Shown: positions 38,373 to 63,822 of the stretch, piece by piece | Position numbering within the stretch: the stretch's first letter is position 1 | How the letters are laid out: the number at the start of each line of letters is the position of its first letter | Translations under genes and position numbers: made by a program | Notes under the pieces: model-generated | Seen by the model: only the letters and a program-made list of their open reading frames with translations | What the model was told of the DNA's origin: nothing | Database searches by the model: none | DNA from: a virus | Virus record (IMG/VR): IMGVR_UViG_3300045988_171772 | Location: 64,001 to 128,000 of that record | Strand: one strand, 5' to 3' | DNA length: 64,000 nt

Positions 38373-38418
38373 ATGCAGGGACTTGAAAGAAAAAATCAAG
38401 TCCCTGCATTTTTATTTT
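38373..38418 (+). terminator. intrinsic terminator
   Basis: ATGCAGGGACTTGA (38373-38386) pairs with TCAAGTCCCTGCAT (38396-38409), then TTTTTATTTT. Confidence 0.85.
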
Positions 38419-38449
38419 GATTTCTCTAAAGGAAAGGAATGAATTTCCT

Positions 38450-38998
38450 ATGGAATTAAAATGCGTAAAAATGAATCCAGAAGCACAGGATTTATATCGG
38501 TCTACTTCTGGATCTGCTGGATATGATGTCTCTATCTGTGATAATAGAGAACTTGATATGATTCGCAAATGGGCCAGAGAGAATCCCAAGCAATTGATCA
38601 AGTATCCTAAGATGACTACCATTGGTGGAGCTGTTGGTGGTCAATATTATCCCACCTATCAATTCTCTATTGAACCTGGAAAAAGTGCTACCATTCATAC
38701 TGGATTGGCAGTAGAGATACCCGAAGGATATGTAGGTCTGCTGGTAGCTCGCTCTGGTATCTCCAATCACTATGGGATTACTCCCAAGGATTGTATTGGA
38801 ATCATTGATTCTGATTATAGAGGAGAATTGATGGTCCATCTGGTCAATGACTCGGATCAGGAGTATTTCCTCTCTAAGAATGAGAGAGTATGTCAATTGG
38901 TAATCACTCCGTATATTGCTCCGGATATTGTCTATGTTGACAAACTCTCGGAGACGGAACGAGGAACGGGAGGATTTGGATCTTCTGGATCCAATTAA
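38450..38998 (+). CDS. dut: dUTP diphosphatase with an insertion between motifs I and II
   Basis: Motifs GSAGYDV, VARSGIS, GIIDSDYRGEL, ERVCQLVI and RGTGGFGSSG. About 35 extra residues lie after motif I. Confidence 0.85.
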   Translation: MELKCVKMNPEAQDLYRSTSGSAGYDVSICDNRELDMIRKWARENPKQLIKYPKMTTIGGAVGGQYYPTYQFSIEPGKSATIHTGLAVEIPEGYVGLLVARSGISNHYGITPKDCIGIIDSDYRGELMVHLVNDSDQEYFLSKNERVCQLVITPYIAPDIVYVDKLSETERGTGGFGSSGSN

Positions 38999-42993: not shown

Positions 42994-45900
42994 TTAATAG
43001 GAAGCGATCTTAGCATAAGTAGACCGGAGATTTCCTCTACCGAGACTATCACTATTCAGACCATTATTCAGAGTGGACAGCTTTTGTTTAGCAGAATCTT
43101 TTGCACTCTGCTTTCTCTGGGTGTCACTCTTCTTACCTTCCTTAGAGGCATTCGTATTCTTACCGGTTTCCATCTTCTTGGTAGTACCACCAAGAGCACC
43201 ACCAGAGACCATGTTACCAGTATTGTCACGAATGTCAGTGAGCAGCAGAATCATCTGATCCAGCTTATCACCACTATCAGAAATAGTAGTTTCAGCATCC
43301 TCAGGTCCGCGACCCAGAAGCGGATAATCCTTATAGGCTCCACCCTTAGGCAGCTTCTCCTGAGCTTTCTTTCTTGCAACCTGCTGCTGATAGTAGGCCA
43401 ATTTCTTTTCTTCCATCGTATTGCCAGGCATAGAAGCAAGAATCTTGGGATCAGGTTCTTTATCCATACCCATACCATATCCGACAGAAGTATCGGTGGC
43501 AGTACCATTTGCAGCAGCATTCTCCTCTGCAGCTTCTTCATCAGCCTTGACCTGGTCATAACTCTTACCAGAGATGACAGAATTCATGACACGAGTGCCA
43601 ACCTTATTGAAGATATTACCCACAGAGTTGAAGATTGCATTGAAGAGGTTGGTAGCAGAAGGAGATTCGGATTCACCTTCAGCACCAGTAGTTCCAGTTG
43701 TGGCTCCTGCCGTAGCAGTACCATCTGTAGCACCCGTAGTAGCGCCGGAAGCTCCAGAAGCAGATACCGACATGCCACTAGAGACATTGGGATCCAACTG
43801 TCCAGAAGCACCCTTGCCATCCGGAGTTTCTATAACCTGAGCCCAGTGCATCGGGTTAATAGAACTCGCTGTGGGAGCCCAAGCAGTCTGTGCCGTAGAT
43901 CCTTGTCCATAGGGAGGATTCGGAGCATACGGGTCATTGATAATGATATTGCCATTGGCATCCAGTCCAGTAGCAAGCACGCAGTGAGAACCACCCATTC
44001 CGTACTTGTACATGTTGCTATTATTGCCAACACCGTACATCATAACCATCTTTCTCTGCTTCAGAGCAGAAATAATGGTATCGAGATACTGCGTACCGTC
44101 AACAGTACCAGCGGACTGAGAGCCATTCGCAGGATAACGAGTTACCTTAACGCCAGCCTTCTGCAGGTTGGAGATGGTAGCAGCGTTACCATATTGATTC
44201 AGGAATGTACCAGGGTCAATGGCATTACCAGTAATGGTAGAAGCAGCCATTGTACCAGAGGTATGAACGCATCCAATAGAACCAATAGTTCCTTTATAAG
44301 GAGGCAGGTTCATATTGGAGTACGAGTTACCATTCTGTGAGAAGTAGTAAGCTCCATGCTGAATGGTGGTACCATTATCCTTCACCACATTGGCAGGAGT
44401 CGTACCAGAAGCAGATACTGTGGAGCCTTCGCTTGCCATAGTACCCATTGCATGAGCACCACCCAGTCTCTCCATAGAGTAAGCATGAGTAGCTCCATTC
44501 TGAAGCATACCAGGTGATACCACAGAGGATCCTTCACCATCATCCACGGTATACATACCATCAGGTGTACGACCTGTGACAGTAACGATGTGACCCGCTT
44601 TGGTATAAAGAGAATCACAAGAATTACATCCAGATCCATAACCCATGGATTTACCAGAGACAATGACAGGATTTCCATTATCCAGAGATGCATCCAAAGA
44701 ATCCATCCCGGAGATTTCAGTTCCGGACATACCATATTTACGAGCACCTTCTGTGAAGAGCTTCGCATTGGCACCTCCATCTGTCAACATACCATTTCTT
44801 CTGGCATATCTGCCCACTTCACCAGGATTGGCATTACCGCCAGCTGCATTCACAGCATTCGCCAGTGCAGTAGGTCCACAACCAGAATTGGCCATATTGG
44901 CAGGAGATCCATCCGGAAGAGTACCGAGACTCAAAGAAGCATAAGAAGGATCATCTTGCTTCAGACCACCAGGTCCATAGCCAAGAGCTCCTCCACCATT
45001 TCCAAGAGATGCTCTAGAAGACTGCTTGTTAGCTTCTTTTGCAACGCTCAGAGATGCAGTCATATTGTCTTTCTTGTTTTGCTGATATCTCTTGCTAGAA
45101 GTATCTGTTCCTGATCCATATCCTTCAGTATTAGCAGCAGTGGCGGTTTCTTCGTCCTGCTTCTTATTACCTCCAAATATACCAGAGAACCAGTTACTTA
45201 CAGCCTTACCAGCTCTCTTAGCAGCACCGATTACTCCATTAACGGCTTTACTGCCGATAGTCTGATTCACAATATCATTATATTCGGTAAGAGACAAATC
45301 TTCTTCTGTAAGATTATTATCTTTCAAATATTGCTGATATTCTGCCTCATACTCACTCTGCTTTTGGTCAATGGTCTTAACACCTTTCTTTTCAAGACCA
45401 AAGACTTTGTAGATGAGCTCGTAAATGACTTCGGCGAGTTCTCTCTTGAAATTGGGCAAACCAATAAGCTCACAGATACTAGAAACCAGATCGAATGCAG
45501 GACCGACAAAGGGAAGGTACTCGACAAGAAGGCTGATAATAGCAGATACAGTTCTCATTCCAATATCAACATCGTCTTCGGATATCATGAAAAGATTCGC
45601 AGCATCCAAAGCACCAGAAGCTACTGTAAAGACGCCTGTAATAACTGCACCAGCAGTCTTCAGAGCCTGCCCAGCAGTGCTTGCATTGAATTTTGTGATC
45701 AATTCACTGATCTGTGTAGCAAACTTTGTATTCTTTATTGCGGTCTTCAGATTATTGAAGATTCCAGAAATGAAATCCTTAATCTTCTTAACCAATTCAG
45801 AAGGTTTTACATCTTTCAGAAGTTGTTTAAGAGGACCACAATTTGCAAATTTATCAAGAGCTTCCGTCAGCATATCCAGGAGATTTGTCAGAGACTCCCA

Positions 45901-48900
45901 GACCTTGCTTCCGTTGGTACTTGCCCACTTTGCTGTAGTGAAATCTGCCGCCTTCTTTGTTTTTGTAGCCAAGAATCCTGCGCCTTTTTGAGCCAGGCCA
46001 GTCAGGCCTCTTCCTACAGTGGCAGTACCCTTACCAACAGCTGCAGTTGCTTTACCGAATTTTTTGATAGATTTGACAATCGGAATATGATCGGTTACAA
46101 AATCGACACCTTTTCCTACCCAGGAAAGCGCTTTACCGGCTTTACTACCCTTGACAGCAGCTTTCGCAGCTCCATAAGCGTTCGATGCCTTAACACCGAC
46201 ATCGTGAACGACATCAGCAGCTGTCAAAACTGCCCCACCGGCTTTATTCACAAGAGTACCACCGGCTTTGAAACCAGCTCTTGCTAGATCTCCATCTGTA
46301 CCAGTAACTGCAGTTTGAGCTGCCTTCCTTCTGACAAAATTCGGAATCATCATGCCTCTTTCAGTATTGACGGTAGCAGTAACGACTTCGTTACCATTTT
46401 CGTCAACTCTGGTACCTGCACCGACATAGTCAGGATTCAACTCTTCCATTTCTTCCTTGGTGAATTCTTTAGTGTCTCCACCAAGGACGAATTGACCGAG
46501 GAAATCACCAACCTTATCTCCGATACCTTCAATACCATCCATGATGGCACCACCGATACCTTTTGCAAGAGCACCACCGAGAGAGATAACCGCTTTACCA
46601 AGTACCTCTCCCAAAGTACCGATCAGTTTTCTACCAGTCTCAGAGTTCAGAAGAGCAGCCACAGTGGTAATACCACCAATAGCAAGACCAGCTTTCTTGA
46701 GGATATCCCCAATTCCGCCTTCTTCCTCTTCTTCCTGAGCAACCGCGTCACCTTCAACAGGTTCTGCCTTACCAGGTTCTTCATCTTCTTCACCGGTAGA
46801 ATCCTTCACTTTATCTTTACCCTGAGCCTGAATAGAAGCAGTTTCTTCTGCTTCTCTCGCTCTTCTCTGAGCATCCGCAGCATCTGCTTTGTCCTCATTA
46901 GCCGCAGCAGTCTTTCTTCTATGCTCAGTTTCGGCGATCTCAGCTTTATTTTCTTCTTCTTGCTGCTTAGCTTCTTCAGCCTGATCCTGCATCTTTTGCT
47001 TTTTCTTCTCAATAGCAGCATTGACAGCATTGATGATAGCAGAAGCTTTATCAGAAGCAGTATCAATCAGAGATTCATCCAGAGGAATACCAAGAGTAGC
47101 AGAGATTTGACCCAAAGCAAGAGCAATCTGATTCTTACGAGTCGCTTGTGCTTCTGCTTTTTCTTTCTCTTCTTCTACCTTCTCTGCAGCAATACGGTCA
47201 CGTTCTTGGAGCTCTTTCTTGAAGGCCTCCTGGTTCTTCATCCACTTATCAAAATCTTCTTTATTCTCGATTCTGTTATAAGTTTCATCGATGATGTTAC
47301 CTTCGGCATCCCGTTCAAGATACTGCTCAACGTCTTTCCGTCTCTTTGCATACTCTTTATCAGTCAGATCCTTAGCAGCGTAAGCATCCTTCCGATTATA
47401 TTTACTGAGCACACTATCGAGACGATTTTGTCTCTTACTATTCTGCTTTTCTGCACGATATTTGGCAAATCCAGTCAGGCCAGCAAGAGCTTGCTCTTTA
47501 TTATTAATGAATTTCTGGTAATTCTTTCCGATATACTCATTGAGAGCATTGGGGTCGATCTGACCATTCTCATCTCTCGGAAGAGCATTCCAGGCTTTAT
47601 CCTTGACATTACCGTTTCGATCCTTAGGAAGCAATTCTTCCATAGCAGCTTGTCTTTCCATAGGATCGACACTCTGCATTCTAGACTGAATATCATCCAA
47701 TCTATCTTTCTCATCTTGATACTGAGCTCCATAATAGGATTCAGCACCCTGAGCCATAGAAGATTTAAATGCTCCGATTCTAGCACGAATTCCACCCTTC
47801 TGAGTGACAGCGGATTTCGCACTATCCTTCAGATTTCCTAAGAGACCATGTCTAACATAACCAGCTCTAGCTCCCCAACGAGCATTCCTTCTCGCTCGTC
47901 TCTGACCTCTGAGGTTCTTTAAGAACTCAAGAGGATTCTCTGCATTTCTACTATTCCAGAGATCAGCGATGAGTTGAGTCGGTTTCGCTGCAATCCATGT
48001 AGCAGCTTTAGCAGCAGTCTTCAGTGCGAACGCTCCACCTTTGACAGTGGCACCCAACATAGCACCGGTAATCTTGACAATCCCATTATTGAGAGCCTGC
48101 ATAGGATGGGTAATAATGGAAATCACATTCTTACCAACATTCTGGATGGTTTCAACCATGGACTTTGTCACAGGATTTTTCAGTCCCATGTCTCTGAAGG
48201 CGGCTACAATAGGAGCAAACTGAGCTTTCGCATAGCTTGCAACTTCATTCTTGACAGAGTCAAAAGAAGACTTCAGAAGATTCTTTCCTTCTGTCTGAAG
48301 CATGTTTGTCCACTGACCGACCATACCAGTCTTCTCAACATGGACAACTCCATTTTCATCTACTGTCTTTGATCCAAAGAAGAGTCTCTTGAAATCAAAT
48401 CCAGTAGTAGCGATACCCACAGTAGCACCAAGAATGGCACCACCAATAGGACCACCGGGAAGGAAGAGAGAACCTAAGACTCCACCAATACCTGCGCTCA
48501 TAGCAGTTCTCTTGGTAAAACCTACCTTAGCTTTGATCTTCTGCCACAGATTTGCTGCGATTTCCTTACCATCTGTAAAGACATCTTCCACCGCTTCCGC
48601 AGATTTATTCAGCTCATCAATAGCGATATTGATCGAGGCCTTGGTATCTTTCTCTCTATTCTTATCCTCGGATCTTCTTCTAGAAGCTTCGTTGGTATTG
48701 GATCCAGGTCTTCTTGCATTCTGGTTATTGGCTCTACGAGCAGGAGCACCACCGAGTCTCTCACCATTACCAAGAGCTCCATTATCATTATTGGTATTAT
48801 CAGAAGGAGCATTCGGATCCTTACCAGTCATTACCTGAGTGGATTTATCTCTCACCTTCTGCTTGAAGGTACGAGTATCCTTAGGCTTCTTCTTGATTTC

Positions 48901-51318
48901 ACCTTGACTATTCAGAATAGACTGATCATTCTGCCACTGGGTATTTCCATCTCTGGGGATTCCTTGTTTATCCATGGGATAAATATCAGATCCACCAGGA
49001 GGTTGCAGATTGGCATCTCGATCGGTACCTTTAACGACTCTATCATCATGATCAATCGGCTTGATGATATATTTCTTACCATCCAGGACGATATTTCTTC
49101 TCTTTACGACACGAAGGCATCCAGGTTTACCATATCGATACTTCAATACAGCCAAACCGAATAATCCATCTTTGTCACCAGATTTATCAGCGGTGATAAA
49201 ATCGTATTGATCCGGATTGTAGGCATTATTCCGCATGATGTTCATCACATCAGCGACAGTCAGATGATCATATTCATACTTACTGACATTCTTCTTGAAG
49301 GAGCTTGCAACTCCCAAGACACCACCAGTAGTATCAACTGTATCATATCCTGAAATAAGACCGATCAATCCCAGACCAGCAGCTTCCACTTTAGAAGCAG
49401 CTTTGTTTCTCGTGTAAGTGGTACCGACACCTTCACTAGCAGCATATTTGATATTTTCGATATATCGATTCTTCTGCTTATTAGAGGCAAAGACAGTACC
49501 CTTTGCACGATCCATCAGCCTCTTGGTTTCTTCTGCAGCTTCCTCAGCTTTCTTCTTGTCTCTCTCCTGTTTTCTAGAGAGATCAGTAGCAGTATAAGAA
49601 GTACCAAGATCTTCCGGGCTAAATCCACCTTTGATAAAACCAAACTGGTTGGTTTCTCTCCGGTTAAATAGCTCGGATTCAGATTCTGTGAGTTCCATCT
49701 GCATCATATACTGACGCAGTTTTGTCACAGTTCCTTTGAAATAAATGACCAACTGAGAAATCTCAAATGGATTAAATCCCAGTTTCTCGAGTTCTTTACC
49801 ATAGGCTCTAGCAGCTTGGGTAAGATTCTTCTCTCCTTCGAGAGTTTTCTCACCATAGATCATAGGTTGCAAATGCTTCCACATGATCTTCTTTGCTTCA
49901 TCCTGTAAAGCCTCGTCATCCTGGAATTTACTTTCAAAGAAAATATTCGATTCAGCAGAAGCTCCACGGAATGCATCTGATGTGCGAGCTCTCAATCCTT
50001 CTCGAATCTGTTTCTTGTCCTTGAATGTCCCGGCGTCATAATCATAGAAGACGGGTTCCTTAGATCCTTTCCTCTTGGGAATATTCGAAGTATTCGCTTC
50101 GATCATTGCCAAGTAATGAGGAATGACTACCTCAAGAGCTCTCTTGGATTTACCATCCCAAGGAACTGCTCCCTTATAGTATTTCCCTAACTGGAAAGAA
50201 TCTTGCTTTCTTGCTCCAGCTCCTAACAGCTGACCAAGCATTCCTTTGATTCCGGATTCATTCCGCATGTCAGAAAGAGTCGATAATCCGCCCATCAAAG
50301 CCTGAGGAAGCAGATCATCGACTTTTGTGATAGCCTTCTGAATCTTCTTCGGAATCAATTTCTTCATTGCAGCATTCATGAGCATCTGAGTAGGCCGAAT
50401 CATAGATTTCGGTCCACCCATACCGCCCATCATATTTCCCATCATGGAACCCATACCCAGCATCATCTGCAGTTCAGACAGAGACGAGCTATTCTGGAAA
50501 TTCTCTTTGACGACGGAAATGTAGGAGGGAAGATCGAAAGAACCACCTGCCAGGAATGCATCCATAGCAGGAGTCTTACCCTTCTTCTTGGAGGGCTTAT
50601 ACATCTCCATCTGGACTTTCATGAAGGCATGAGCTGACTTCAAATAATCCAGATGTGCCTGGTTTACCTTACTCTGGTTATCATTCATGAATTTCACGAT
50701 ATTAACCAGGTTGGTATTGATCTGATCCAGGCGTTTATTTGTCTCTGTCAGAGAAGCACCCAGTTTATTGACTGCAATCATTCCGATGTTATTCGTCGTA
50801 TTCATGATTGCTTTGGCAGTATTTACCTGGGCCATCATCTGAGCCTTAGAGGATCTCTCTAATGTCTCAGCGATTCGATTGCTTCCTTCCAGGCTAACTT
50901 TTGCAGTTGCTTTCGCATCTGTGCTAAGATTTAATTTACGAACTTCCACACCACTCTCATTTTGATCTTCTGAGGTGGTGTAGTCACTTGAATCGAAATC
51001 AAAATCGTCACTACCAAAAAGATCACCAAAGTCATCCTTGGGAGTGGCGAAGTTACCGGTTTTGATATCATTGATCGTACCTTCAATGATATCATTGGCC
51101 TGCTTTTGAAGTTCTGTATAGTTGAGAGCACGATCGACTTGCTTACCTTTGGCACGATAGTCGCTCATGAAATCTCTCAGCTTATAGATTTCATCCGCAG
51201 CATCTTCTGTAATCTTGGTAGTATTGGGTGCTACCTCGGTCAGTACGTCCTTGGCAGAGTAACCAATCGACTTACCAAAATTAGCAAGCCAAGATGCCAC
51301 GCTATTTAAACGAGCCAA
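42994..51318 (-). CDS. giant tape-measure-like virion protein with two C-terminal papain-like cysteine peptidase domains
   Basis: 2774-aa ORF with a TTG start after GGTGAAG. Contains long charged coiled coils and Gly-zipper hydrophobic segments. Cys/His pairs: NSGCGPTALA...AGHIVTVTG (about 44540-44920) and GSIGCVHTSG...GGSHCVLATG (about 43930-44300). Confidence 0.8.
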   Translation of the reverse strand: MARLNSVASWLANFGKSIGYSAKDVLTEVAPNTTKITEDAADEIYKLRDFMSDYRAKGKQVDRALNYTELQKQANDIIEGTINDIKTGNFATPKDDFGDLFGSDDFDFDSSDYTTSEDQNESGVEVRKLNLSTDAKATAKVSLEGSNRIAETLERSSKAQMMAQVNTAKAIMNTTNNIGMIAVNKLGASLTETNKRLDQINTNLVNIVKFMNDNQSKVNQAHLDYLKSAHAFMKVQMEMYKPSKKKGKTPAMDAFLAGGSFDLPSYISVVKENFQNSSSLSELQMMLGMGSMMGNMMGGMGGPKSMIRPTQMLMNAAMKKLIPKKIQKAITKVDDLLPQALMGGLSTLSDMRNESGIKGMLGQLLGAGARKQDSFQLGKYYKGAVPWDGKSKRALEVVIPHYLAMIEANTSNIPKRKGSKEPVFYDYDAGTFKDKKQIREGLRARTSDAFRGASAESNIFFESKFQDDEALQDEAKKIMWKHLQPMIYGEKTLEGEKNLTQAARAYGKELEKLGFNPFEISQLVIYFKGTVTKLRQYMMQMELTESESELFNRRETNQFGFIKGGFSPEDLGTSYTATDLSRKQERDKKKAEEAAEETKRLMDRAKGTVFASNKQKNRYIENIKYAASEGVGTTYTRNKAASKVEAAGLGLIGLISGYDTVDTTGGVLGVASSFKKNVSKYEYDHLTVADVMNIMRNNAYNPDQYDFITADKSGDKDGLFGLAVLKYRYGKPGCLRVVKRRNIVLDGKKYIIKPIDHDDRVVKGTDRDANLQPPGGSDIYPMDKQGIPRDGNTQWQNDQSILNSQGEIKKKPKDTRTFKQKVRDKSTQVMTGKDPNAPSDNTNNDNGALGNGERLGGAPARRANNQNARRPGSNTNEASRRRSEDKNREKDTKASINIAIDELNKSAEAVEDVFTDGKEIAANLWQKIKAKVGFTKRTAMSAGIGGVLGSLFLPGGPIGGAILGATVGIATTGFDFKRLFFGSKTVDENGVVHVEKTGMVGQWTNMLQTEGKNLLKSSFDSVKNEVASYAKAQFAPIVAAFRDMGLKNPVTKSMVETIQNVGKNVISIITHPMQALNNGIVKITGAMLGATVKGGAFALKTAAKAATWIAAKPTQLIADLWNSRNAENPLEFLKNLRGQRRARRNARWGARAGYVRHGLLGNLKDSAKSAVTQKGGIRARIGAFKSSMAQGAESYYGAQYQDEKDRLDDIQSRMQSVDPMERQAAMEELLPKDRNGNVKDKAWNALPRDENGQIDPNALNEYIGKNYQKFINNKEQALAGLTGFAKYRAEKQNSKRQNRLDSVLSKYNRKDAYAAKDLTDKEYAKRRKDVEQYLERDAEGNIIDETYNRIENKEDFDKWMKNQEAFKKELQERDRIAAEKVEEEKEKAEAQATRKNQIALALGQISATLGIPLDESLIDTASDKASAIINAVNAAIEKKKQKMQDQAEEAKQQEEENKAEIAETEHRRKTAAANEDKADAADAQRRAREAEETASIQAQGKDKVKDSTGEEDEEPGKAEPVEGDAVAQEEEEEGGIGDILKKAGLAIGGITTVAALLNSETGRKLIGTLGEVLGKAVISLGGALAKGIGGAIMDGIEGIGDKVGDFLGQFVLGGDTKEFTKEEMEELNPDYVGAGTRVDENGNEVVTATVNTERGMMIPNFVRRKAAQTAVTGTDGDLARAGFKAGGTLVNKAGGAVLTAADVVHDVGVKASNAYGAAKAAVKGSKAGKALSWVGKGVDFVTDHIPIVKSIKKFGKATAAVGKGTATVGRGLTGLAQKGAGFLATKTKKAADFTTAKWASTNGSKVWESLTNLLDMLTEALDKFANCGPLKQLLKDVKPSELVKKIKDFISGIFNNLKTAIKNTKFATQISELITKFNASTAGQALKTAGAVITGVFTVASGALDAANLFMISEDDVDIGMRTVSAIISLLVEYLPFVGPAFDLVSSICELIGLPNFKRELAEVIYELIYKVFGLEKKGVKTIDQKQSEYEAEYQQYLKDNNLTEEDLSLTEYNDIVNQTIGSKAVNGVIGAAKRAGKAVSNWFSGIFGGNKKQDEETATAANTEGYGSGTDTSSKRYQQNKKDNMTASLSVAKEANKQSSRASLGNGGGALGYGPGGLKQDDPSYASLSLGTLPDGSPANMANSGCGPTALANAVNAAGGNANPGEVGRYARRNGMLTDGGANAKLFTEGARKYGMSGTEISGMDSLDASLDNGNPVIVSGKSMGYGSGCNSCDSLYTKAGHIVTVTGRTPDGMYTVDDGEGSSVVSPGMLQNGATHAYSMERLGGAHAMGTMASEGSTVSASGTTPANVVKDNGTTIQHGAYYFSQNGNSYSNMNLPPYKGTIGSIGCVHTSGTMAASTITGNAIDPGTFLNQYGNAATISNLQKAGVKVTRYPANGSQSAGTVDGTQYLDTIISALKQRKMVMMYGVGNNSNMYKYGMGGSHCVLATGLDANGNIIINDPYAPNPPYGQGSTAQTAWAPTASSINPMHWAQVIETPDGKGASGQLDPNVSSGMSVSASGASGATTGATDGTATAGATTGTTGAEGESESPSATNLFNAIFNSVGNIFNKVGTRVMNSVISGKSYDQVKADEEAAEENAAANGTATDTSVGYGMGMDKEPDPKILASMPGNTMEEKKLAYYQQQVARKKAQEKLPKGGAYKDYPLLGRGPEDAETTISDSGDKLDQMILLLTDIRDNTGNMVSGGALGGTTKKMETGKNTNASKEGKKSDTQRKQSAKDSAKQKLSTLNNGLNSDSLGRGNLRSTYAKIASY

Positions 51319-53915: not shown

Positions 53916-55211
53916 TCATTGTGTAACAGGACCGGGCGATTCTCCAGACTGAGTTTCTTCACTCTGGAGCCTCTGATAATCCGTCGGAGCCCGATTCACT
54001 TCCTCACGGTTGTAGGCATTGATCGGAGTTCCCGGATTGGTAGGATACGGAGTCTCTTCCTTGGGAGTCTGCTCATGGGCAGCTTCCTGCTCACGAGTCC
54101 TCTGAAGAATCTCTGCAGTGGTCGGCACTCCTGCGATCTTAGGATCATTCGGAGTATACGGAACCCCATTCATCATGTCCGCAATGTCACCGAACTGGGG
54201 GCCATTATAGGGTTCCTGAGGATCCTGACCATAATAAGGACGACCAGGACGAAGATTCGGAGTCTGATCCTCATATTCATCCTCGCCATCGAAATCGTCG
54301 ATGCGATCTTCCAGATCTCCAACCTTACGGCCAAGAGCCTGAATCATCTGAAGGATCTTTTCCTCTCCGGGACTAACCTGGATCTTCTGGGCTGCCTGAG
54401 GAGGATTTGCATACATGGGATTGGACTGGGGATTCTGACGATTCTGATTCATGATCATCTGAGCCAGAGTGTTGATGCTCTTCTCGATGTTCTCGAACCG
54501 TTCGTCATACTCATTCCCAGAGTCATCCTCACCGAAGTCGAGATTGTCCATATCATAGTCGTCCATATCGAAGGGACGCTGACGACGAGGACGGAATTCT
54601 TCAAAGTCGAAGTTATACGGATCCTCTTCCATATCCCAGGAGACATTCCCGATCGTACCACGATCAGCAAAGTTCTTGAGAGCAGCAAAGCGATCCTTAT
54701 AATCATCGACATCCGAACTCCGGATATTCAGATTATCCTGAAGACCTTCGATGGCATCCCGATACCGCTTATTCAGCCACTTCATCTCATCCTGAGACTT
54801 GTTGATCCGCTTATTGTGCTTAGACTTCTGATCGACACGAAGAGTACCACCAGTGGAAGCCAGCTTCTTCTGAGCTTTCTTGATGACCTTCTTCAGCTGA
54901 TCCTTTCTCTCCTGGACATCGACCAGAAGAGTCATGACCTCATAATAGGTATCATCACTCAGGAGAAGCCAAAGCTCTTTGATGCCGATCTCGTTAAAGA
55001 CCTGGACCACCTGGGACATCGTCTTGCAAGAGGCAGACCTTCTCGCAAAAGATTTGATCCCATACAGATCACGGAATACTCGATCCACATATTGAATTCG
55101 AGTGCAGGCCCCAGTCCGATCACAGCAAAGTTTCCGGATCCGATTCAGCATCGTCCGAATCAACCTTGCTGCTTTGGATCTTGGGGTCGTCGTTTTCCTA
55201 GAATCACTCAA
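53916..55211 (-). CDS. hypothetical protein with Pro/Gln-rich C-terminus
   Basis: 431-aa ORF with a TTG start 8 nt after AAGGAGGG. Confidence 0.7.
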   Translation of the reverse strand: MSDSRKTTTPRSKAARLIRTMLNRIRKLCCDRTGACTRIQYVDRVFRDLYGIKSFARRSASCKTMSQVVQVFNEIGIKELWLLLSDDTYYEVMTLLVDVQERKDQLKKVIKKAQKKLASTGGTLRVDQKSKHNKRINKSQDEMKWLNKRYRDAIEGLQDNLNIRSSDVDDYKDRFAALKNFADRGTIGNVSWDMEEDPYNFDFEEFRPRRQRPFDMDDYDMDNLDFGEDDSGNEYDERFENIEKSINTLAQMIMNQNRQNPQSNPMYANPPQAAQKIQVSPGEEKILQMIQALGRKVGDLEDRIDDFDGEDEYEDQTPNLRPGRPYYGQDPQEPYNGPQFGDIADMMNGVPYTPNDPKIAGVPTTAEILQRTREQEAAHEQTPKEETPYPTNPGTPINAYNREEVNRAPTDYQRLQSEETQSGESPGPVTQ

Positions 55212-55232: not shown

Positions 55233-55835
55233 TTAGTATTCATCATCACCGATATCGATGAAGTCATCGGGGATCTCGATATCATCCATATCGTCTCCGA
55301 TCATCTCATCCAACTCATCGGGATGACGTTTCTTCTCTTTCTTTGGTTTGTTATCACCCAGAACGGTATTGGCCGGCGTTGCAATCTCCTTAAAGGGATC
55401 ACCAATGCCATGCTTGTCCAGGAATGTATCGCCGATCCGACTAATGTCCCTGGGAGAAAGCTCCCCAACATCTTTCAGCTGCTCAGCAACGAAATCCCAG
55501 ACATTCTTCGCAATGACGGAATCTTTGGTCTTGCCAATATCCTTCATCACGATTCCAATCGCAGCCCCTCTCATCGAATTCAGACGGCGGACAGACTGCG
55601 GATAGTCCTTGCATTTCTCGACCACTTCATCGATCTGGTCATTGATCGCCTTCTTATCATAGAAGGTAATCGGATCCCAACCAATAGCAGTCTCGAAAGC
55701 TTCACTCATTTCAACGGGATCATCCTTCGGGGTGGTAATGGCATAGAGAGCATCGAAGTTTTCCTTGAAGCTCTCCTCATCGTGCACTGCCTGGACAGCA
55801 GTGATTTGATCAAGAAATTCAGATAAGCTTTTCAT
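55233..55835 (-). CDS. hypothetical acidic protein
   Basis: ATG 55835 (MKSLSEF) lies 8 nt after GGAGG. 200 aa. Confidence 0.7.
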   Translation of the reverse strand: MKSLSEFLDQITAVQAVHDEESFKENFDALYAITTPKDDPVEMSEAFETAIGWDPITFYDKKAINDQIDEVVEKCKDYPQSVRRLNSMRGAAIGIVMKDIGKTKDSVIAKNVWDFVAEQLKDVGELSPRDISRIGDTFLDKHGIGDPFKEIATPANTVLGDNKPKKEKKRHPDELDEMIGDDMDDIEIPDDFIDIGDDEY

Positions 55836-55971
55836 AAAAGGCACCTCCGTGATTGCAGTAGAAGAATGTAGTTATTCTTCATCACTTGTGTGTTATACCC
55901 TTTATGACATTTAAAGTATTTCTGATGCTGGTCCGTCGATCTATCCAACACCAGTTTCTCATGAATCCAAT

Positions 55972-55985
55972 ATAATTATATATAG
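55972..55985 (-). promoter_or_regulatory. CTATATATAATTAT variant of the early-type motif
   Basis: Minus strand reads AAATTTCTATATATAATTATATTGG, upstream of gene 55233-55835. Confidence 0.35.
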
Positions 55986-56049
55986 AAATTTTCTCATTCT
56001 CCGAGTTGAGATTTATTGACTTCTGGAGAATGAGAAAAAGACAAAAGAA

Positions 56050-56088
56050 ATCCCTCCATAATGAGTTTTGATCTCACTATGGAGGGAT
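56050..56088 (-). terminator. intrinsic terminator for a minus-strand transcript from 56.1-57.0 kb
   Basis: 11-bp stem ATCCCTCCATA (56050-56060) pairs with TATGGAGGGAT (56078-56088), followed on the minus strand by TTCTTTTGTCTTTTTCTC. Confidence 0.7.
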
Positions 56089-56140
56089 TACCAACCGGCT
56101 CGTGCTTCACCTTTGTTCCAATCGTACATAGCTTGGCCTC

Positions 56141-56587
56141 CTAACCTTGATGTATTTTAACATCTGGCGTATGACATAACGTACAAACACGCATGGGATA
56201 GTATCGCAAGAACGCGTTCAAATCATGGCTAGCAATGGACTTGTACGAAACAGCCAAACATAGGAAGTCCCAGATGAATAAATCGATCCAGTATAAGATC
56301 CATTGCTGGCCATATTCACCAATGCGCAATCGTCTTGACATAGCATCAAGACGCCGTTGTAACGGGTCATATGAAAAGACGTAACGTGTCCTTTGTTTTG
56401 AGTATACCTCACAATGACTTATGGAAATGAAGAGATGAAATAGAATGAAGCCAGTTTCCATGAATGGACCTATCGCGATCTCATCGCGAGATGATTCCTC
56501 ATATACTGTCATGAAAATTAGGAGTTGCGCATAAACAGGATAGCGGCATATAATAATGCGGCGATTATGCGATGTAAATGATACCAA
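56141..56587 (-). CDS. doubtful ORF (hydrophobic, CpG-rich, no SD)
   Basis: 148 codons from a TTG with no SD. Codon usage (CGC, GCG, CCG) is unlike neighbouring genes. Its TAG overlaps the SD of a 13-codon ORF. Confidence 0.2.
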   Translation of the reverse strand: MVSFTSHNRRIIICRYPVYAQLLIFMTVYEESSRDEIAIGPFMETGFILFHLFISISHCEVYSKQRTRYVFSYDPLQRRLDAMSRRLRIGEYGQQWILYWIDLFIWDFLCLAVSYKSIASHDLNAFLRYYPMRVCTLCHTPDVKIHQG

Positions 56588-57055
56588 TTGGATCCAATAT
56601 CAATATCTCGGCTTTCTGCATATGCCTCCATGTACCAAACCAAAGATCTATGAATTACTACAGCTATCGGACAAGCCGGAACATGTCAACGGCTCTAGTC
56701 GGCAGGACATGGTGATCAACCGCCAGACGTTACAAAGCGATCCTGTAATTGCAATCACAGATACTATTCAAGGTTATCCTCATTCTCGTTTTCTAAGAAT
56801 AAGTGCAGCATGTCCCTAGGAGTAAAGAATGATAGAAGCACGAAAACCTAAGATAGACTTTTGGATATAACTATCACATGAGGTTGTGACTACCTAGTGT
56901 GATAGCTAGATATCATACATACATTCCCATTCTGTATAGGAAGAATTACGGTCCATCATAATGACCAAGTAAGTCTTTTTGAGACTTCTCAATCATTACC
57001 TTTTATGTTACACGTCGTTACCATTTTTAATCATGCTTACAGACGAGGCTAGAAA

Positions 57056-57068
57056 AACACCCTGATAA
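57056..57068 (+). promoter_or_regulatory. AACA-N6-TAA motif (candidate late-type promoter)
   Basis: GCTAGAAAAACACCCTGATAAAG, 37 nt before ATG 57106. Confidence 0.5.
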
Positions 57069-57105
57069 AGTTTAGCCTATACACACTAGATATGAGGTGA
57101 CGCAA

Positions 57106-60100
57106 ATGCTTTTTACTGCAGTTGCCAAGAATCGAGTGTATAAGAATCAAGGGATCATTCCTTTTCCCAAAGGTGCTCCTGTAGGTAGAGGAAATCTCTT
57201 ATTTTTGTGCGCTCCAGATGAAAATTCCTCATTCTCTTTGATCAAAAATCCCACTATGGGTTTGAGTGATGCCCGCTATATTCGATATACCGCCGATACA
57301 CGGTATGTCGGTAAAGTAGGAAATCGCAATATCAAAGAAAATCGTCTGAAGGTATTGAAAGATACTTTCACAGAGGAATTTTCTAATTCTGAAATGAATC
57401 TCATTCTCCCCGCTAAGCTGGAGACTGTGATCAAAACCAATTACAATCTCATCTATGACTTTAGTCATTGGAATCGAATCTTCTTCACCTATCGGAGAAC
57501 TGGTAAGGTAGAATTCCTTTGTCAGAAATACATCGAATTTCTGATGAAGGCTTTCAATCGTTCTGAGTTCTCCTCTTATAAGAAGACACTTGTCCTTCCT
57601 ATCAAGGATTGGATGAGTGCTTCTTCTACCCATGAGATTGGTATCACGAAAGCGTATATGGATACCCCGATTTCTATTCTATGTGCCTGTGCCTATCGTT
57701 TTTCTAATCTCATCAAGATGGTGGAGAATGTCGAAATCTATCTGGTAGATCCTACCAATGGAGAATTTCTTCTCTTAGATTCCTCTTTCTTCAATAAGAA
57801 GATGTATCCGAAACTGAAGAATCTCCTGGGTAGAATGACTGCTGTGAAATTCTCTAAAGCCGAAGAGGAAGTATCTGACTCCGAAGGTAATATCAAGGAT
57901 ACCGATATTGCCAAATTGGATAATCAGGTCAAGAATGAGGTTAAGGAGATTCGCCATAAAGAGAAGGTCAAAGAGATTACCAATGTAATCACCGTTGACC
58001 CCTCGAATGAGAATCCCAAACCCGTTCAGTCTTCTTCTCCTGCACCTGCTCCTGTATCTGCAGAGAAGCCTACCTTTGTCAAACCCGAAAAGAAGACGAA
58101 GAAGGAATCTGCAGAGGATGATCTCATTGACTTCTTACTCAGTGAGGATGAAAAGGTAGATCAGACAGTAGCAGACTCTGCAGAAGATACAGAGCCTGAG
58201 ACCAATCCCACGGATGAAGATTCTGAAGAGGATAATATCGATAATGATATTGAATCTGAGGTTGACTCAGTCGTCTATGATTCTGATGAGGATGCTTCCG
58301 AAGAAGATATCATTGATACAGCTGAAAAGAGAGTGAAAGAGAAGGTACTGATCACCAAATTCAAACCTGACTTTGATGAAAAGACCACGGCTCGTATTCG
58401 CTCTCTTATGGATACACAGGATTCTATCATGAATCAGACTGTGCAAGAAATGAAGAAGAAAATCGTTCCTCCTGCAAATCTTGCACCGTATATCAATACG
58501 ATGAATCCTACCATCCAGAAGCCTAAGGCTAAGAATTTCTATAAGCAATACAATGAAACCACTTTTGAGACGGATATCGATAAAGCGGTTGCTAGTCTTG
58601 CTAAGGCAGATTATCCTCTCTTTATCCAAAAGAAAGAAGTAGAAGATACGTCCGATCTCATGAATATGAAGAAGACGTACACTTACACCATGGCGGATAA
58701 AGATGGGCATACCCATATCATTGCCTTTGATGTACCTATCTTCTTGGAGGATCGATATATCTTCCTTGGTGGTAATAAGAAGGTCATTGAGAATCAGATG
58801 CTGATTCTTCCTATTCTCAAATCTGGTCCTGATGAAGTGCAGCTCGTTACTTGGTATAATAAGATTATCATGAAGCGTAGCAGCATGAAGATCGATCAGA
58901 AATCTGAGATCATCAAGAAGTATATTCTGAATCCTCAGAATACTTCTAGATTCAAGGTAAGAATCGGTAGCTGCCAGATGAAAAATAAAGGTACCGATAC
59001 TTCTCTGGACTATGATAACCTGGCTAAGAATATTACCGAATGCACCATCTATGGGAATCGGTTTATCTTCGATACTGCCTATCTTCTGGAGGAGTATAAC
59101 AAGGTACTATCTAAAAATGGTAAGAAACCTATTTCTTCTACCTATGATGCGAATGATGGACTCCTGGTTGGATATAATACCCAGTCTGGCGATCCTATCT
59201 ATGCAAAAGAGGAGAATGGAAAGGGCGTCAATGATATCATTTATAATCTCTTCAAACCCCAGGATATTGCAATTCTTAAAAAGTATACCGTGACTCCTAG
59301 AAGTCTGATGTATGCTCGAGGGAAGATGTACAACCACATGATTCCTATGGTTGGATTCATGTGCTTCTGTGTTGGTTTGACAGAGGTTATGAATAGAGCC
59401 AATATCAAGTATCAGGTTATTGAACCCAATACTAGGTATGATGTCTTGAATCAGAGTGTCATCAAATTCAAAGACAAATGGCTCCTTTGGGATCATTATC
59501 CCTTACATGCATCTTTGATCATGAATGGTCTGTATCAGTATGACTTCAGTAACTATACCCTTGCGGAAGCAGATGGTAAGGAACTGTGGAATGATATCAT
59601 GGCCAATACCTACAAATCTACTCAGGCACTTTTCGTATTGGAGCAATTCAAAGACTTCTTCATTGATCCTATCAGTGCAGAAGTATTGCGGGATATGAAT
59701 ATGCCTACTGATATCGTAGGTCTGATCATTGCTGCTTGTATTCTTCTGAATAACTCTTCTTCGGAGGATATTACAGATCCGAAGAACTTCCGTATTAGAT
59801 CCAATGAGATCTTTGTCCAGTTTATCTATACGGCAGTCGTCAGAGGATATCTGGAATATCGGAAGTCTATCTATAAGAAGAGACCTGTGAAGGTTACTGT
59901 CGATAGAAGCGTGGTATCGAAATCGATCTATGGATCTACAGACAAGACTGGGCATAAACTTCCTTCTTGTGCCATGATCGAAGATTCTTCTATTCTGAAT
60001 CCTGTATTGGAGATGGAAAAGAAAGGATCAGTCTCCTTCAAGGGTCCTTCTGGTATCGGATTGGAGCAGGCTCTTACATTGCCTAAGAGATCTTTCAATC

Positions 60101-61293
60101 CTGGTATGACTGGTACCATTGCGATCTCTACTTCTCCTGATAGAAATGTCGGTGTTTCTAGACAGCTTACACTGGATCCGAACATCGTCTCTGTCAGAGG
60201 ATACATTGGAGATCATGATGAGGATGCGATCCGGGATATGAAGGGAGCCAATCTCTTCTCTCCTGCTGAATTGCTTTCTCCTCCTGGTGCTATGCATGAT
60301 GATAGTCAGCGTACGGCTATGGCCTATAAGCAGACAAAGTACATGGTCTTGACGGAGGGATCTTCTCCTGTCTTGATGGGTAATAAGGTAGAAGCTGCAT
60401 TGCCCTACTACCTGTCTAGAGACTACACAGTCGTAGCACAAGAAGATGGTAAAGTGGCTGCCATTGAGAATGATCAGGTCATCATTCAGTACAAGAATGG
60501 TCGATATGATTCCTTCTCTCTGGTACCGAAACAGCAAAAGAACTCTGCGGGTGGTTTCTACATCGAAGCGTCTTTCCAGACAGATCTCAAAGTTGGAGAT
60601 AAAGTCAAGAAAGGTGAAGTCGTTGCCTATAACCCCAGAGCCTTTACCAAGAATAAAGATGATCTGAGTGCTTCTATGAATATCGGTGTCCTTTGTAAGA
60701 TGGCAATCTGTCCTACATTTGACGAATATGAAGACTCTGCTCCTATCACGACTGAGCTGTCTAAGAGACTTGCTACTGTCATGGTACATGAGCAGAGAGT
60801 AGTATTGTCTAAGGACGCCGTAGTCTATATGATGTCTAAGATTGGTCAGCATGTCGAAGTTGGTGATTCTCTCATTGAGTATGATAACTCCAATGAAGAT
60901 CCCACTATGGCAGAATTGTGGGCCAATATGGCAGAGACATATGGAGAAGCTCTTACAGATGTCGCCATTACCAAATTCAAGTCTGAATTCTCTGGTGAGA
61001 TTACCAATATCAAGATCTACTCTGCTGTGGATGGAGAAGAACTCTCTGACAAGTCTCTGAGAAAGATCGTCCAAGATTATTGGAATACCATCAAGAAGAG
61101 AAATAAGACTCTGGAAAAATACCGGAATCCCGATGATCCTAAGTTCATGCCTTGTGGACAGCAGATCACAGAAATTCCTGGTAAGGTAGAAGCAAAGTTT
61201 GGGAAAATCCTCGGCGAAAATGTCGGGGATGGTGTCCTCTTCTGCTTCTATATCAAACACAAAGATATCGTCAAGAAAGGCGATAAAGTCACT
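57106..61293 (+). CDS. multisubunit RNA polymerase beta-like subunit, exon 1
   Basis: ATG 57106 follows GAGGTGA. SFKGPSGIGLEQA...TGTIAISTSPDRNVGV resembles GPGGLTRERA...CPIETPEGPNIGL. Ends in ...KKGDKVT at 61293, the first half of the GDK..G.KG motif. Confidence 0.85.
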
Positions 61294-61633
61294 GAGAGAA
61301 AATGGCCGTTTAATTGGTGACTCTAAACCCATTTAACTGCTGGAATATCTCGCTAGGTCTTTACTACTCTAAGGAGTGATAATGTAAAGAATAGAGACAA
61401 TCAGCATCCAAGATCTTTCTTATATAAGAAGGATAAGGTTCATCGACTATCGAAAGCATAGTCTATAGAGAAATCTATAGACGAAGAAGCGAGTAGAGTA
61501 CCGAGTATCTTCCTACACATTGATTCTCTCCAAGAAGATACTTCTGGGAAAAGGTGGGCAATTCTATATCTGGTAACTAGGATATAGAATTGAAGATATA
61601 GTCAGGCCTCATAGAGATATGAGTGGAGAAAAG
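61294..61633 (+). ncRNA. group I self-splicing intron (ORF-less, 340 nt)
   Basis: P1: exon AGUCACU (61287-61293) pairs with GGUGACU (61316-61322), with a U.G pair at the splice site. P10: UAAUU (61311-61315) pairs with exon-2 AAUUA (61634-61638). R-like GUUCAUCGACUAU (61438-61450) and S-like AAGAUAUAGUC (61593-61603). Terminal G at 61633. Confidence 0.85.
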
Positions 61634-61846
61634 AATTATACGGCCTTGAAGGGTATCGTATCCAATGTCATTGATCCTGGATATGAACCTAGATCTGAAT
61701 ATAGACCCGATGAAGAGATCTCTATTCTGATGGCACCCGGAGCTGTTCTTGCTCGTAAGACTCCTTCGGTCATTCTCTCAATGTTTACCAATAAGGTGAT
61801 CATTGAATTGAAGAGACATCTAAAAGAAGACTATCTCGGGGAATAA
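61634..61846 (+). CDS. RNA polymerase beta-like subunit, exon 2
   Basis: NYTALKGIVSNV...ISILMAPGAVLARK continues GDKVT and so completes GDKxxxxxGxKG...(D)IVLNP.G.PSR. Stop at 61844-61846. Confidence 0.85.
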   Translation, partial: NYTALKGIVSNVIDPGYEPRSEYRPDEEISILMAPGAVLARKTPSVILSMFTNKVIIELKRHLKEDYLGE

Positions 61847-61853
61847 ATAAAAA

Positions 61854-61900
61854 GATAATAAGGAATGTATGCACAGACGCATACATTCCTTATTATATTA
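61854..61900 (+). terminator. hairpin terminator (18-bp perfect stem)
   Basis: ATAATAAGGAATGTATGC (61854-61871) pairs with GCATACATTCCTTATTAT (61878-61895). Confidence 0.7.
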
Positions 61901-62002
61901 ATAACCGACAATCATCCCACCGATGTATAATGTACCATTACCAGCATTATATGTTACATTCACATCATATTTATAGGTACCAGATTGTCTCTTTAAAGTA
62001 TT

Positions 62003-63105: not shown

Positions 63106-63609
63106 TTGAAGTTGGCTACTTATGTAAGAAAACTCAAGGATCGTAGTGGGAATTATATAGTACCTGCAACTCGATCTACGGGAGTGTATCTGAATGACAA
63201 TCAGACATTACAGGGTTGGATAGACAATATGGAAGATAAGAAGTTTGATCTTCTTACTGTCTATCCTGTAGGCGCTATCTTTCAATCTACTTCTGATGGA
63301 GTTGTCCAAACCGGTGGTGAGGCATCTCATACATTAACAACTTGGGAAATGCCTACTCATAATCACGGATTTGTCAATAACTCATACACACTTGGTAATG
63401 GCGGGACTGGATGGGAAGGAGATTTGAATCTGGTTATTGGTGGTCATGAAGACTATATCGTATGCTTCAAGACTGGACCTCTTGGAAGACCTAATGCGGC
63501 ATTCGCATCTTCATCTCAGCATAATCATACCATTGATGGTGGTAATGGAGGAGCTCATAATAACCTACCTCCCTATTATGCAGTGAATAACTGGAGAAGG
63601 ACTGCATAA
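63106..63609 (+). CDS. tail-collar-domain (tail fibre / MdpB-like) protein
   Basis: 167 aa. SHTLTTWEMPTHNH and GGAHNNLPPYYAVNNWRRT are the hallmark tail-collar motifs. TTG start is uncertain (63106 or 63112). Confidence 0.75.
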   Translation: MKLATYVRKLKDRSGNYIVPATRSTGVYLNDNQTLQGWIDNMEDKKFDLLTVYPVGAIFQSTSDGVVQTGGEASHTLTTWEMPTHNHGFVNNSYTLGNGGTGWEGDLNLVIGGHEDYIVCFKTGPLGRPNAAFASSSQHNHTIDGGNGGAHNNLPPYYAVNNWRRTA

Positions 63610-63746: not shown

Positions 63747-63822
63747 TGGAGCTAGTGACAGGAATCGAACCTGCAACCTGCTGATTACAAATCAGCTGCA
63801 CTGCCAATTGTGCTACACTAGC
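63747..63822 (-). tRNA. tRNA-Thr (anticodon UGU), CCA encoded
   Basis: Minus strand reads GCTAGTG-TA-GCAC-AATTGGCA-GTGC-A-GCTGA-TTTGTAA-TCAGC-AGGTT-GCAGG-TTCGATT-CCTGT-CACTAGC-T-CCA. Full cloverleaf, 76 nt. Confidence 0.9.

Follow-up and report, generated by a model that had tools for sequence, protein, structure and literature searches.

A probable N-beta subunit gene of a phiKZ/AR9-type virion RNA polymerase, interrupted by a group I intron, in a jumbo phage

The 64,000-nucleotide stretch of viral DNA analysed here (the window; positions 64,001 to 128,000 of the IMG/VR record IMGVR_UViG_3300045988_171772) contains at 57106-61846, on the plus strand, a gene that very probably encodes the N-beta subunit of a phiKZ/AR9-type virion RNA polymerase (RNAP), orthologous to phiKZ gp178, AR9 g189, phiR1-37 g099, and SPN3US gp241. 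It is a full-length N-beta gene, neither damaged nor unusually truncated, and its reading frame is interrupted once, by a group I intron between two conserved lysines of the catalytic barrel. A first-pass annotation, made from the sequence without database searches, had proposed a split beta subunit of the phiKZ/AR9 type belonging to a virion RNAP (vRNAP); this proposal is now substantiated by the match to PHROG 3148, the orthologs gp178, g189, and g099, the profile match to bacterial beta, and structural searches with Foldseek. What is new here is a divergent N-beta sequence, the family itself being already well described.

Family Membership and Homology to Bacterial Beta

The spliced product matches PHROG 3148 ('RNA polymerase beta subunit') with E=4.9e-144, residues 271-1464 lying on positions 297-1421 of the 1424-position profile. 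A tblastn search of 50,697 phage records matched 300 jumbo-phage records, with the best identities in Staphylococcus phage SA1 (30%), Yersinia phage phiR1-37 (g099, 28%), and Fusobacterium phage JD-Fnp1 (26%). The alignment with phiKZ gp178, at 22% identity, reaches query residue 1465, and AR9 g189 was matched in several pieces. The corresponding record annotations are 'structural head protein' for gp178 (1451 amino acids, aa), 'phage structural protein' for g099 (1393 aa), and 'virion RNAP subunit', the beta N-terminus joined from 6 pieces, for g189. The highest protein identity to any GenBank phage is 30%, and a megablast search with positions 57000-62000 gave no match among GenBank phages; closer relatives were found in metagenomes only, where the IMG/VR set used here comprised 50 relatives at 26-44% identity. 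In an alignment of 12 N-beta sequences including gp178, g099, and SA1 (alignment A1), purifying conservation extends over the whole length of the homologs.

Homology to bacterial beta is detected already with the single sequence, which matched Thermus beta residues 532-710 among the PDB sequences (E=8e-8). The profile made from alignment A1 matched bacterial beta with E=6e-19 in three colinear stretches:

Profile 899-1019 to beta chain 386-506: the fork-loop region, NPL..GPGGL
Profile 1028-1319 to beta chain 573-875 (of a 1178-residue beta): HDD through the flap
Profile 1370-1437 to beta chain 867-934: GDK..GNKG to NPLGVPSRMN

Since 23 profile positions remain after the match end at beta residue 934, the chain is placed as ending near residue 957 of the 1178-residue beta. 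About one fifth of beta is missing, as the first-pass annotation had claimed. The protein is therefore not a full-length RpoB: the match stops at approximately chain residue 934 of 1178, and the region equivalent to E. coli beta 1222-1309 is not in the polypeptide.

An AlphaFold2 model of residues 396-1466, used for Foldseek probabilities and not for domain geometry, gave 148 PDB matches at E<=1e-3. Among the 50 matches listed, all are RNAP beta chains at probability 1.0, headed by chain 7S00_C from the non-virion RNAP (nvRNAP) of AR9, after which come the beta chains of Thermus, E. coli, and Mycobacterium. Similarity to RpoB is thus not confined to the motifs that had been matched in the first-pass annotation, a restriction that would have spoken against the assignment; it takes the form of a colinear profile match together with structural matches to beta chains.

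Reading Frame and Spliced Product

On the plus strand, the open reading frame (ORF) list of the window has 57097-61320 (1407 aa) and, in a different frame, 61619-61846 (75 aa). The probable start of the gene is ATG 57106, since the homologs all begin with MLF or MLY, which fits this codon and not GTG 57097. The gene is organized as follows:

57056-57068, plus strand: candidate late promoter of the AR9 type, an AACA-N6-TAA motif (AACACCCTGATAA) whose last A (57068), 38 nucleotides (nt) before the ATG, is predicted to be the transcription start site
57094-57099, plus strand: Shine-Dalgarno-like GAGGTG, 6 nt before ATG 57106, read from the sequence
57106-61293, plus strand: exon 1, residues 1-1396, ending in KKGDKVT; 4188 nt, exactly 1396 codons
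57106-57885, plus strand: N-terminal globular alpha/beta domain, approximately residues 1-260 (AlphaFold2, BFVD, conservation within the clade)
57886-58317, plus strand: low-complexity linker, approximately residues 261-404 (about 145 aa), changing in composition from K/E-rich to P/S/A-rich to strongly acidic
58318-61293, plus strand: conserved N-beta core in exon 1, residues 405-1396 (invariant alignment columns, beta profile matches, Foldseek)
61294-61633, plus strand: group I intron of 340 nt without an ORF (Rfam RF00028; P1, P10, and omega-G; missing in the relative L141)
61634-61846, plus strand: exon 2, residues 1397-1466 (NYTALKGIVS...LKEDYLGE) and the stop codon (homolog comparison; profile 1370-1437 against beta 867-934)
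61855-61896, no strand assigned: 19-bp hairpin, terminator-like, directly 3' of the stop codon (61844-61846); it could work bidirectionally

The core in exon 1 contains the motifs NPVLE..GPSG (residues 965-983), HDD (1064-1066, nt 60295-60303), KNSAGGF (1145-1151), and GDK (1392-1394, nt 61279-61287). Exon 2 supplies K1402 (nt 61649-61651), located within LKG, and APGAVLARKTP, the counterpart of the bacterial NPLGVPSRMN; the junction reads GDKVT|NYTALKGIVS. The spliced protein has 1466 aa and ends 64 residues past K1402, in agreement with the earlier estimates of about 1466 aa and about 60 residues after the GxKG motif. The G+C content of the window is approximately 40%.

The Group I Intron

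The Rfam model RF00028 (group I intron) matches 61280-61624 over its full length (model positions 1-253) with 75.2 bits, the gathering score being 50. Several signs agree on the boundaries 61293|61294 and 61633|61634. In the P1 helix, AGUCACU (61287-61293) is base-paired to GGUGACU (61316-61322), and the canonical U.G wobble marks the 5' splice site; P10 joins UAAUU (61311-61315) to AAUUA (61634-61638); and the omega-G is G61633. Without splicing the frame meets a stop codon at 61318-61320, and removal of the 340 nt brings exon 2 back in frame. Two independent checks agree with this: a blastn comparison with the intronless relative L141 (77-86% nucleotide identity) breaks exactly at 61293|61634, which corresponds to L141 positions 10170|10171, and in five homologs that lack the intron the sequence spanning the junction is GDKVTNYTALKGIVS. 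On these boundaries, which explain the split frame, together with the observed structural signatures of the intron, the N-beta pre-mRNA is predicted to be spliced at 61293|61634.

The insertion point lies between both conserved lysines of the double-psi barrel, K1394 and K1402. Four sequences (P0001, P0004, P0005, and P0011) end just past GDKVT, which indicates that relatives sharing 99%, 82%, and 47% identity have the same site filled; other relatives, at 81-82% identity, have it empty. Because the site is filled in some close relatives and empty in others, gain or loss of the intron is recent, judging by these sequence comparisons. No ORF of at least 40 aa is listed inside 61294-61633; lacking a homing endonuclease ORF, the intron is at present not autonomously mobile and cannot home by itself. 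Rfam revealed no further intron downstream of exon 2.

N-beta genes often carry group I introns: there are 5 in AR9, 6 in the IMG/VR locus L056, and 3 in L052, and AR9-like relatives have up to 5-7. At a further IMG/VR locus, L030, about 1.3 kb is inserted somewhere between query residues 1382 and 1400, and inserts of 1.3-1.7 kb at related loci may carry an endonuclease.

The C-Terminal End and the Separate C-Beta Gene

The first-pass annotation regarded the gene as truncated and suggested that its break point may differ from the described ones. Neither suggestion held. The PHROG 3148 match runs to the end of the profile, and the C-termini of all 12 sequences in alignment A1 fall in one column, with GDK, K1402, and R1437 invariant. 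Among the 50 IMG/VR relatives, the frame of 49 ends within -1 to +11 codons of the stop codon in the window. Because the end column is shared and the stop is kept in these relatives, the apparent truncation is the normal end of the family, the same as in gp178. The sole exception among the 50 relatives (IMGVR_UViG_3300009430_000004, 7099-7473) has 125 more codons encoding a zinc-ribbon-like CxxC...CxxC tail. This extension was considered as a fused C-beta and rejected, the tail being unrelated.

The last fifth of beta is encoded separately in this family. In phiKZ it is C-beta gp149, 224 aa, annotated as a structural head protein, and in SPN3US it is gp218 of 25 kDa (PMC5694885). Homologs of gp149 occur in 299 phage records, essentially the set that holds N-beta, and members of the family have about 224-255 aa. 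In SA1 and AR9-like phages the C-beta domain forms the C-terminal part of a longer protein, and the extension of the C-beta protein in Bacillus phages is an HD domain (PMC7598289). A profile of 20 C-beta sequences matched E. coli beta 1222-1309 with E=2e-6. IMG/VR was scanned with a 20-sequence C-beta alignment, a 3-sequence alignment having given only 3 loci. On five IMG/VR contigs with the closest IMG/VR relatives of our N-beta (3300004463_000226, 3300033802_000317, 3300031466_000001, 3300029305_003110, and 3300042922_001182), C-beta is a separate gene, and over 70 kb lie between it and N-beta.

The N-Terminal Domain and Acidic Linker

The earlier description of the N-terminal region as non-homologous needs to be corrected: it consists of a conserved folded domain and a linker, and the domain fold is common to the AR9/PBS1/phiR1-37 clade. 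Across 13 sequences that share 30-67% identity, 26 positions of the domain are invariant, and its AlphaFold2 model is confident, with a predicted local distance difference test score (pLDDT) of 88.5 and a predicted template modelling score (pTM) of 0.86. The best matches in BFVD, with probability 1.0, fall on N-beta N-termini from PBS1, phiR1-37 (G4KK38), and uncultured myoviruses. Against PDB, the domain gave only insignificant SRP54/FtsY/ParA-like (P-loop-NTPase-like) matches with E>=0.016. An NTPase assignment was rejected on the insignificance of these matches and because the loop formed by residues 23-29, G-x-P-x-G-[KRY]-G, does not constitute a Walker A motif.

The acidic low-complexity stretch placed by the first-pass annotation at about 58,100-58,330 was located precisely at nt 58111-58317 (approximately residues 336-404), with 42-50% aspartate or glutamate (D/E) per 40-residue window; the peptide quoted there corresponds to residues 370-404, nt 58213-58317. 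In alignment A1 the linker is poorly conserved and differs among homologs in both length and sequence, its acidic character being retained, also in phiKZ gp178.

In 201phi2-1 the prohead protease removes an N-terminal propeptide of 275 residues (PMC5694885), and alignment with 201phi2-1 gp273/274 places its TFE-275 cleavage site at the end of the globular domain, before the acidic region. The SPN3US N-beta is not processed and that of phiKZ probably is not, N-terminal processing thus differing between phages (PMC5694885). The prohead-protease motifs of our protein (S/A/G-x-E at 252, 318, 335, 358, and 405; TFE at 486) were uninformative as candidate cleavage sites, being too frequent in the acidic linker. 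By analogy with these phages, a role of the N-terminal domain and the acidic linker in head incorporation is plausible.

A more specific idea is that the domain and linker form an autoinhibitory, DNA-mimicking, head-targeting module that would fill the nucleic-acid channel of the newly made vRNAP. We consider this unlikely. If true, the module would silence the late-made enzyme until packaging or until removal by the prohead protease, and it would answer the question how a late-made vRNAP avoids untimely transcription of early genes. The broader alternative, that this part of the protein is a separate functional add-on, for instance an autoinhibitory DNA mimic or a head-targeting propeptide, and that the gene thus does more than its polymerase core would indicate, agrees with the conserved and confidently folded domain, with the approximately 70 residues at 42-50% D/E, with the removal of the equivalent 275 residues in 201phi2-1 (PMC5694885), and with the requirement that a late-made vRNAP stay inactive until packaging (PMC5312081). 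However, SPN3US and probably phiKZ leave the subunit unprocessed, the linker sequence is poorly conserved, and no significant structural match gives a function. This alternative is very unlikely as an explanation in its own right, and in any case it supplements the N-beta assignment rather than replacing it.

The Late-Type Promoter Motif

The AACA-N6-TAA motif noticed earlier ahead of the gene proved to be of the AR9 late-promoter type and position-specific. The AR9 late promoter consensus is AACA-(6N)-TA/G, its last base being the transcription start (PMC5312081). The window contains 11 copies of AACA-N6-TAA against 7.7 expected, a count that is not significant alone; the placement of the copies is significant. 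Nine of these copies, with motif starts at 5117, 7524, 17390, 24808, 34535, 36200, 42922, 51365, and 57056, are located 27-39 nt upstream of same-strand starts of ORFs that encode at least 100 aa; from ORF density, a random site is estimated to be so placed with a probability of approximately 2-3%. The ORFs behind the motif include those for the tail sheath, two virion structural proteins, a 2774-aa product, and N-beta. Because the motif equals the AR9 late consensus and is position-specific upstream of ORFs, it is well founded to suppose that N-beta is expressed late by an AR9-type non-virion polymerase.

The two other copies, at 25633 and 31315 (both on the minus strand), fall at or just within annotated starts, which suggests that these starts were called too far upstream. 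This distribution of the motif implies a non-virion polymerase of the AR9 type, and possibly DNA that contains deoxyuridine, on which the recognition of AR9-type late promoters depends. A dUTPase-family protein is encoded at 38417-38998 on the plus strand (PHROG 135, E=1e-51, with a weak dCTP-deaminase match), which could bear on deoxyuridine-containing DNA as in AR9/PBS1 and phiR1-37.

Proposed Mechanism and Alternatives

The vRNAP consists of five pieces, and its beta split site is unlike that of nvRNAP (PMC7598289). According to SPN3US genetics, no vRNAP subunit enters the prohead unless all five have first assembled (PMC5694885). Taking these systems as a guide, we propose the following scheme. 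N-beta would be transcribed late from the AACA-N6-TA promoter by the phage non-virion polymerase, and the 340-nt intron would be removed from its pre-mRNA between the lysines of the catalytic barrel. In the 1466-aa product, a clade-specific alpha/beta domain (about 260 aa) and a largely acidic linker (about 145 aa) would precede a beta core of about 1060 aa, predicted to span the N-terminal part, fork-loop, HDD, flap, and double-psi beta-barrel and to end at approximately E. coli beta residue 1135. The rest of beta (E. coli 1222-1309), responsible for clamp closure against beta-prime, would be supplied in trans by C-beta of about 224-255 aa. On the model of SPN3US and phiKZ, N-beta and C-beta would assemble with three pieces of beta-prime, one of them encoded at 18270-19493, and then enter the prohead, and the vRNAP would be ejected with the DNA and transcribe the early genes. 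The N-terminal domain and the acidic linker would most likely serve head incorporation and perhaps be cut by the prohead protease; this is the weakest step of the scheme. The presence of N-beta in the virion head is suggested by the orthologs, namely the annotations in phiKZ and phiR1-37 and the proteomics of SPN3US.

A number of results weigh against the assignment. C-beta was found neither in the window by tblastn with phiKZ gp149, SA1 QPI16945, and Goe21_00920, nor in its six-frame translation by a hidden Markov model of 123 C-beta sequences; its location elsewhere in the present genome, outside the window, is deduced from relatives. PHROG scans of 40 ORFs of the window likewise gave no C-beta. 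Pfam RpoB domains remained below threshold on the single sequence, exon 1 and exon 2 yielding only sub-threshold, irrelevant matches. For residues 396-1466 AlphaFold2 gave a poor model (mean pLDDT 54.9, pTM 0.34), and the Foldseek template modelling scores are consequently low, at 0.16-0.33, so that only the probabilities and E-values are convincing. No structure of any gp178 homolog was found among the PDB sequences by protein and family profile searches. Finally, packaging, late timing, and splicing are proposed from orthology and motifs.

Beyond the N-terminal add-on considered above, the gene might encode a beta-like subunit of the nvRNAP, made early and not packaged. Both vRNAP and nvRNAP are built of split beta-like and beta-prime-like pieces, and the top Foldseek match is the AR9 nvRNAP chain, although apparently no vRNAP structure was there for comparison. 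On the other hand, the beta of nvRNAP is split elsewhere (PMC7598289). In phiKZ gp123 and gp71-73 and in AR9 gp105 and gp089 the split lies upstream of the barrel and gives two mid-sized pieces, the barrel lysines being carried by phiKZ gp71-73 at K386 and K394 (PMC8287921); here the pre-barrel regions and the barrel are in one chain, which reaches past residue 1402 and lacks only the last fifth of beta. Moreover, the phage genes that match best in both directions, gp178, g189, and g099, carry virion-protein annotations; searches of PDB sequences with the protein and the family profile retrieved no nvRNAP chains; and a late-type motif precedes the gene. An nvRNAP subunit is therefore highly improbable.

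The reading as an rpoB-like gene that is genuinely truncated or in decay, or as an artefact of sequencing or assembly, is almost certainly wrong: the frame is interrupted once, at the stop codon 61318-61320, and AR9-like relatives have up to 5-7 introns, but one intron with exact boundaries explains the interruption, the 19-bp hairpin follows the stop codon, this stop is kept in the 12 aligned homologs and at 49 of the 50 loci, Rfam shows no downstream intron and the six-frame translation of the window no homology to the beta C-terminus, and purifying conservation covers the whole length of the homologs. No full-length beta frame, the outcome by which the initial proposal could have failed, appears once the intron is accounted for.

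Through the N-beta gene, the window can be assigned to a jumbo phage of the AR9/phiR1-37 kind, which would deliver a multisubunit RNA polymerase of its own to the cell. The family gains from it a divergent member, at most 30% identical to any GenBank phage, and no solved structure of the family was found among the PDB sequences. An ORF-less intron located exactly between the barrel lysines and variable among close relatives may be of use to specialists. The position-specific AACA-N6-TA motif in a phage of about 40% G+C suggests that promoter recognition by AR9-type nvRNAP extends beyond the Bacillus phages. Neither the intron nor the promoter result alters present understanding.

Companion Subunit and Neighbouring Genes

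The window also contains a gene for a second vRNAP piece:

18270-19493, plus strand: middle piece of the vRNAP beta-prime, a phiKZ gp80 homolog of 407 aa (PHROG 2962, E=1.7e-60)

Its product is 30% identical to SA1 QPI17141, and in phiKZ it matches best within gp80 (E=5.5e-13, compared with 3e-4 for gp74). A variant motif, AACA-N7-TAA, is located about 45 nt upstream of this gene.

Upstream of N-beta, an ORF-poor region of about 1.2 kb (55845-57055) separates its promoter from a divergent gene of 203 aa; no Rfam family and no tRNA was detected in this region. A gap at the same place in the relative L141 is not conserved in sequence (55994-56993 unaligned). Two minus-strand genes, at 53916-55211 and 55233-55844, lie upstream of N-beta and encode acidic low-complexity proteins of 431 and 203 aa without PHROG matches. 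They are syntenic with the genes for 444 and 183 aa in L141, and their products could be internal head or ejection proteins. The 2774-aa ORF at 42994-51318 (minus strand), preceded by a late motif, has no PHROG match and probably encodes a giant virion protein; its 2845-aa homolog in a relative shows only a weak match to Peptidase_C39_2. Downstream of N-beta, an ORF of 167 aa at 63106-63609 (plus strand) has matches to PHROGs for tail fibers and tail proteins, in their C-terminal parts, and a tRNA-Thr (TGT) gene is located at 63747-63822 on the minus strand.

Comparison with Known Systems

The protein shares with bacterial RpoB a colinear series of conserved regions, namely the fork loop, HDD, the flap, the double-psi barrel with GDK..GNKG, and NPLGVPSRMN. 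Unlike bacterial RpoB, it lacks the last fifth, including the equivalent of E. coli 1222-1309, and has about 400 extra N-terminal residues. The vRNAP as a whole also differs from bacterial RNAP in having no alpha or omega partners (PMC7598289).

The plan of the protein is the same as in phiKZ gp178, SPN3US gp241, and 201phi2-1 gp273-274, with a long N-terminal extension containing an acidic stretch followed by the beta core. The C-terminal end of phiKZ-like N-beta, about 60-70 aa past GDK...K, is shared as well; in those phages C-beta is a separate gene, as is predicted here. The length is similar (1451 aa in gp178 and 1466 aa here), although identity is only about 22%. The nearest annotated relatives are AR9/PBS1 g189, phiR1-37 g099, and SA1 QPI17140, at 28-30% identity, and the N-beta of the AR9-like clade has in common with our gene the fold of the N-terminal domain, the C-terminus, and the frequent presence of group I introns. 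The AR9 late-promoter consensus is the same as the motif in the window, whereas the late promoters of phiKZ are of the TATG type.

The intron resembles those of PhiPA3 and AR9 in being of group I, in interrupting a conserved catalytic motif of the same gene, and in its patchy presence among relatives. It differs from them in the insertion site and in having no homing endonuclease ORF, in contrast to the PhiPA3 intron in the N-beta gene, which encodes the HNH endonuclease gp210 (bioRxiv 10.1101/2023.09.30.560319). In PhiPA3 and 201phi2-1 the mobile intron is inserted right after HDD (residue 1066 here), and the present intron lies 330 residues farther on. None of the 5 introns of AR9 g189 is located at GDK|KG, its last exon being unbroken over query residues 1152-1463.

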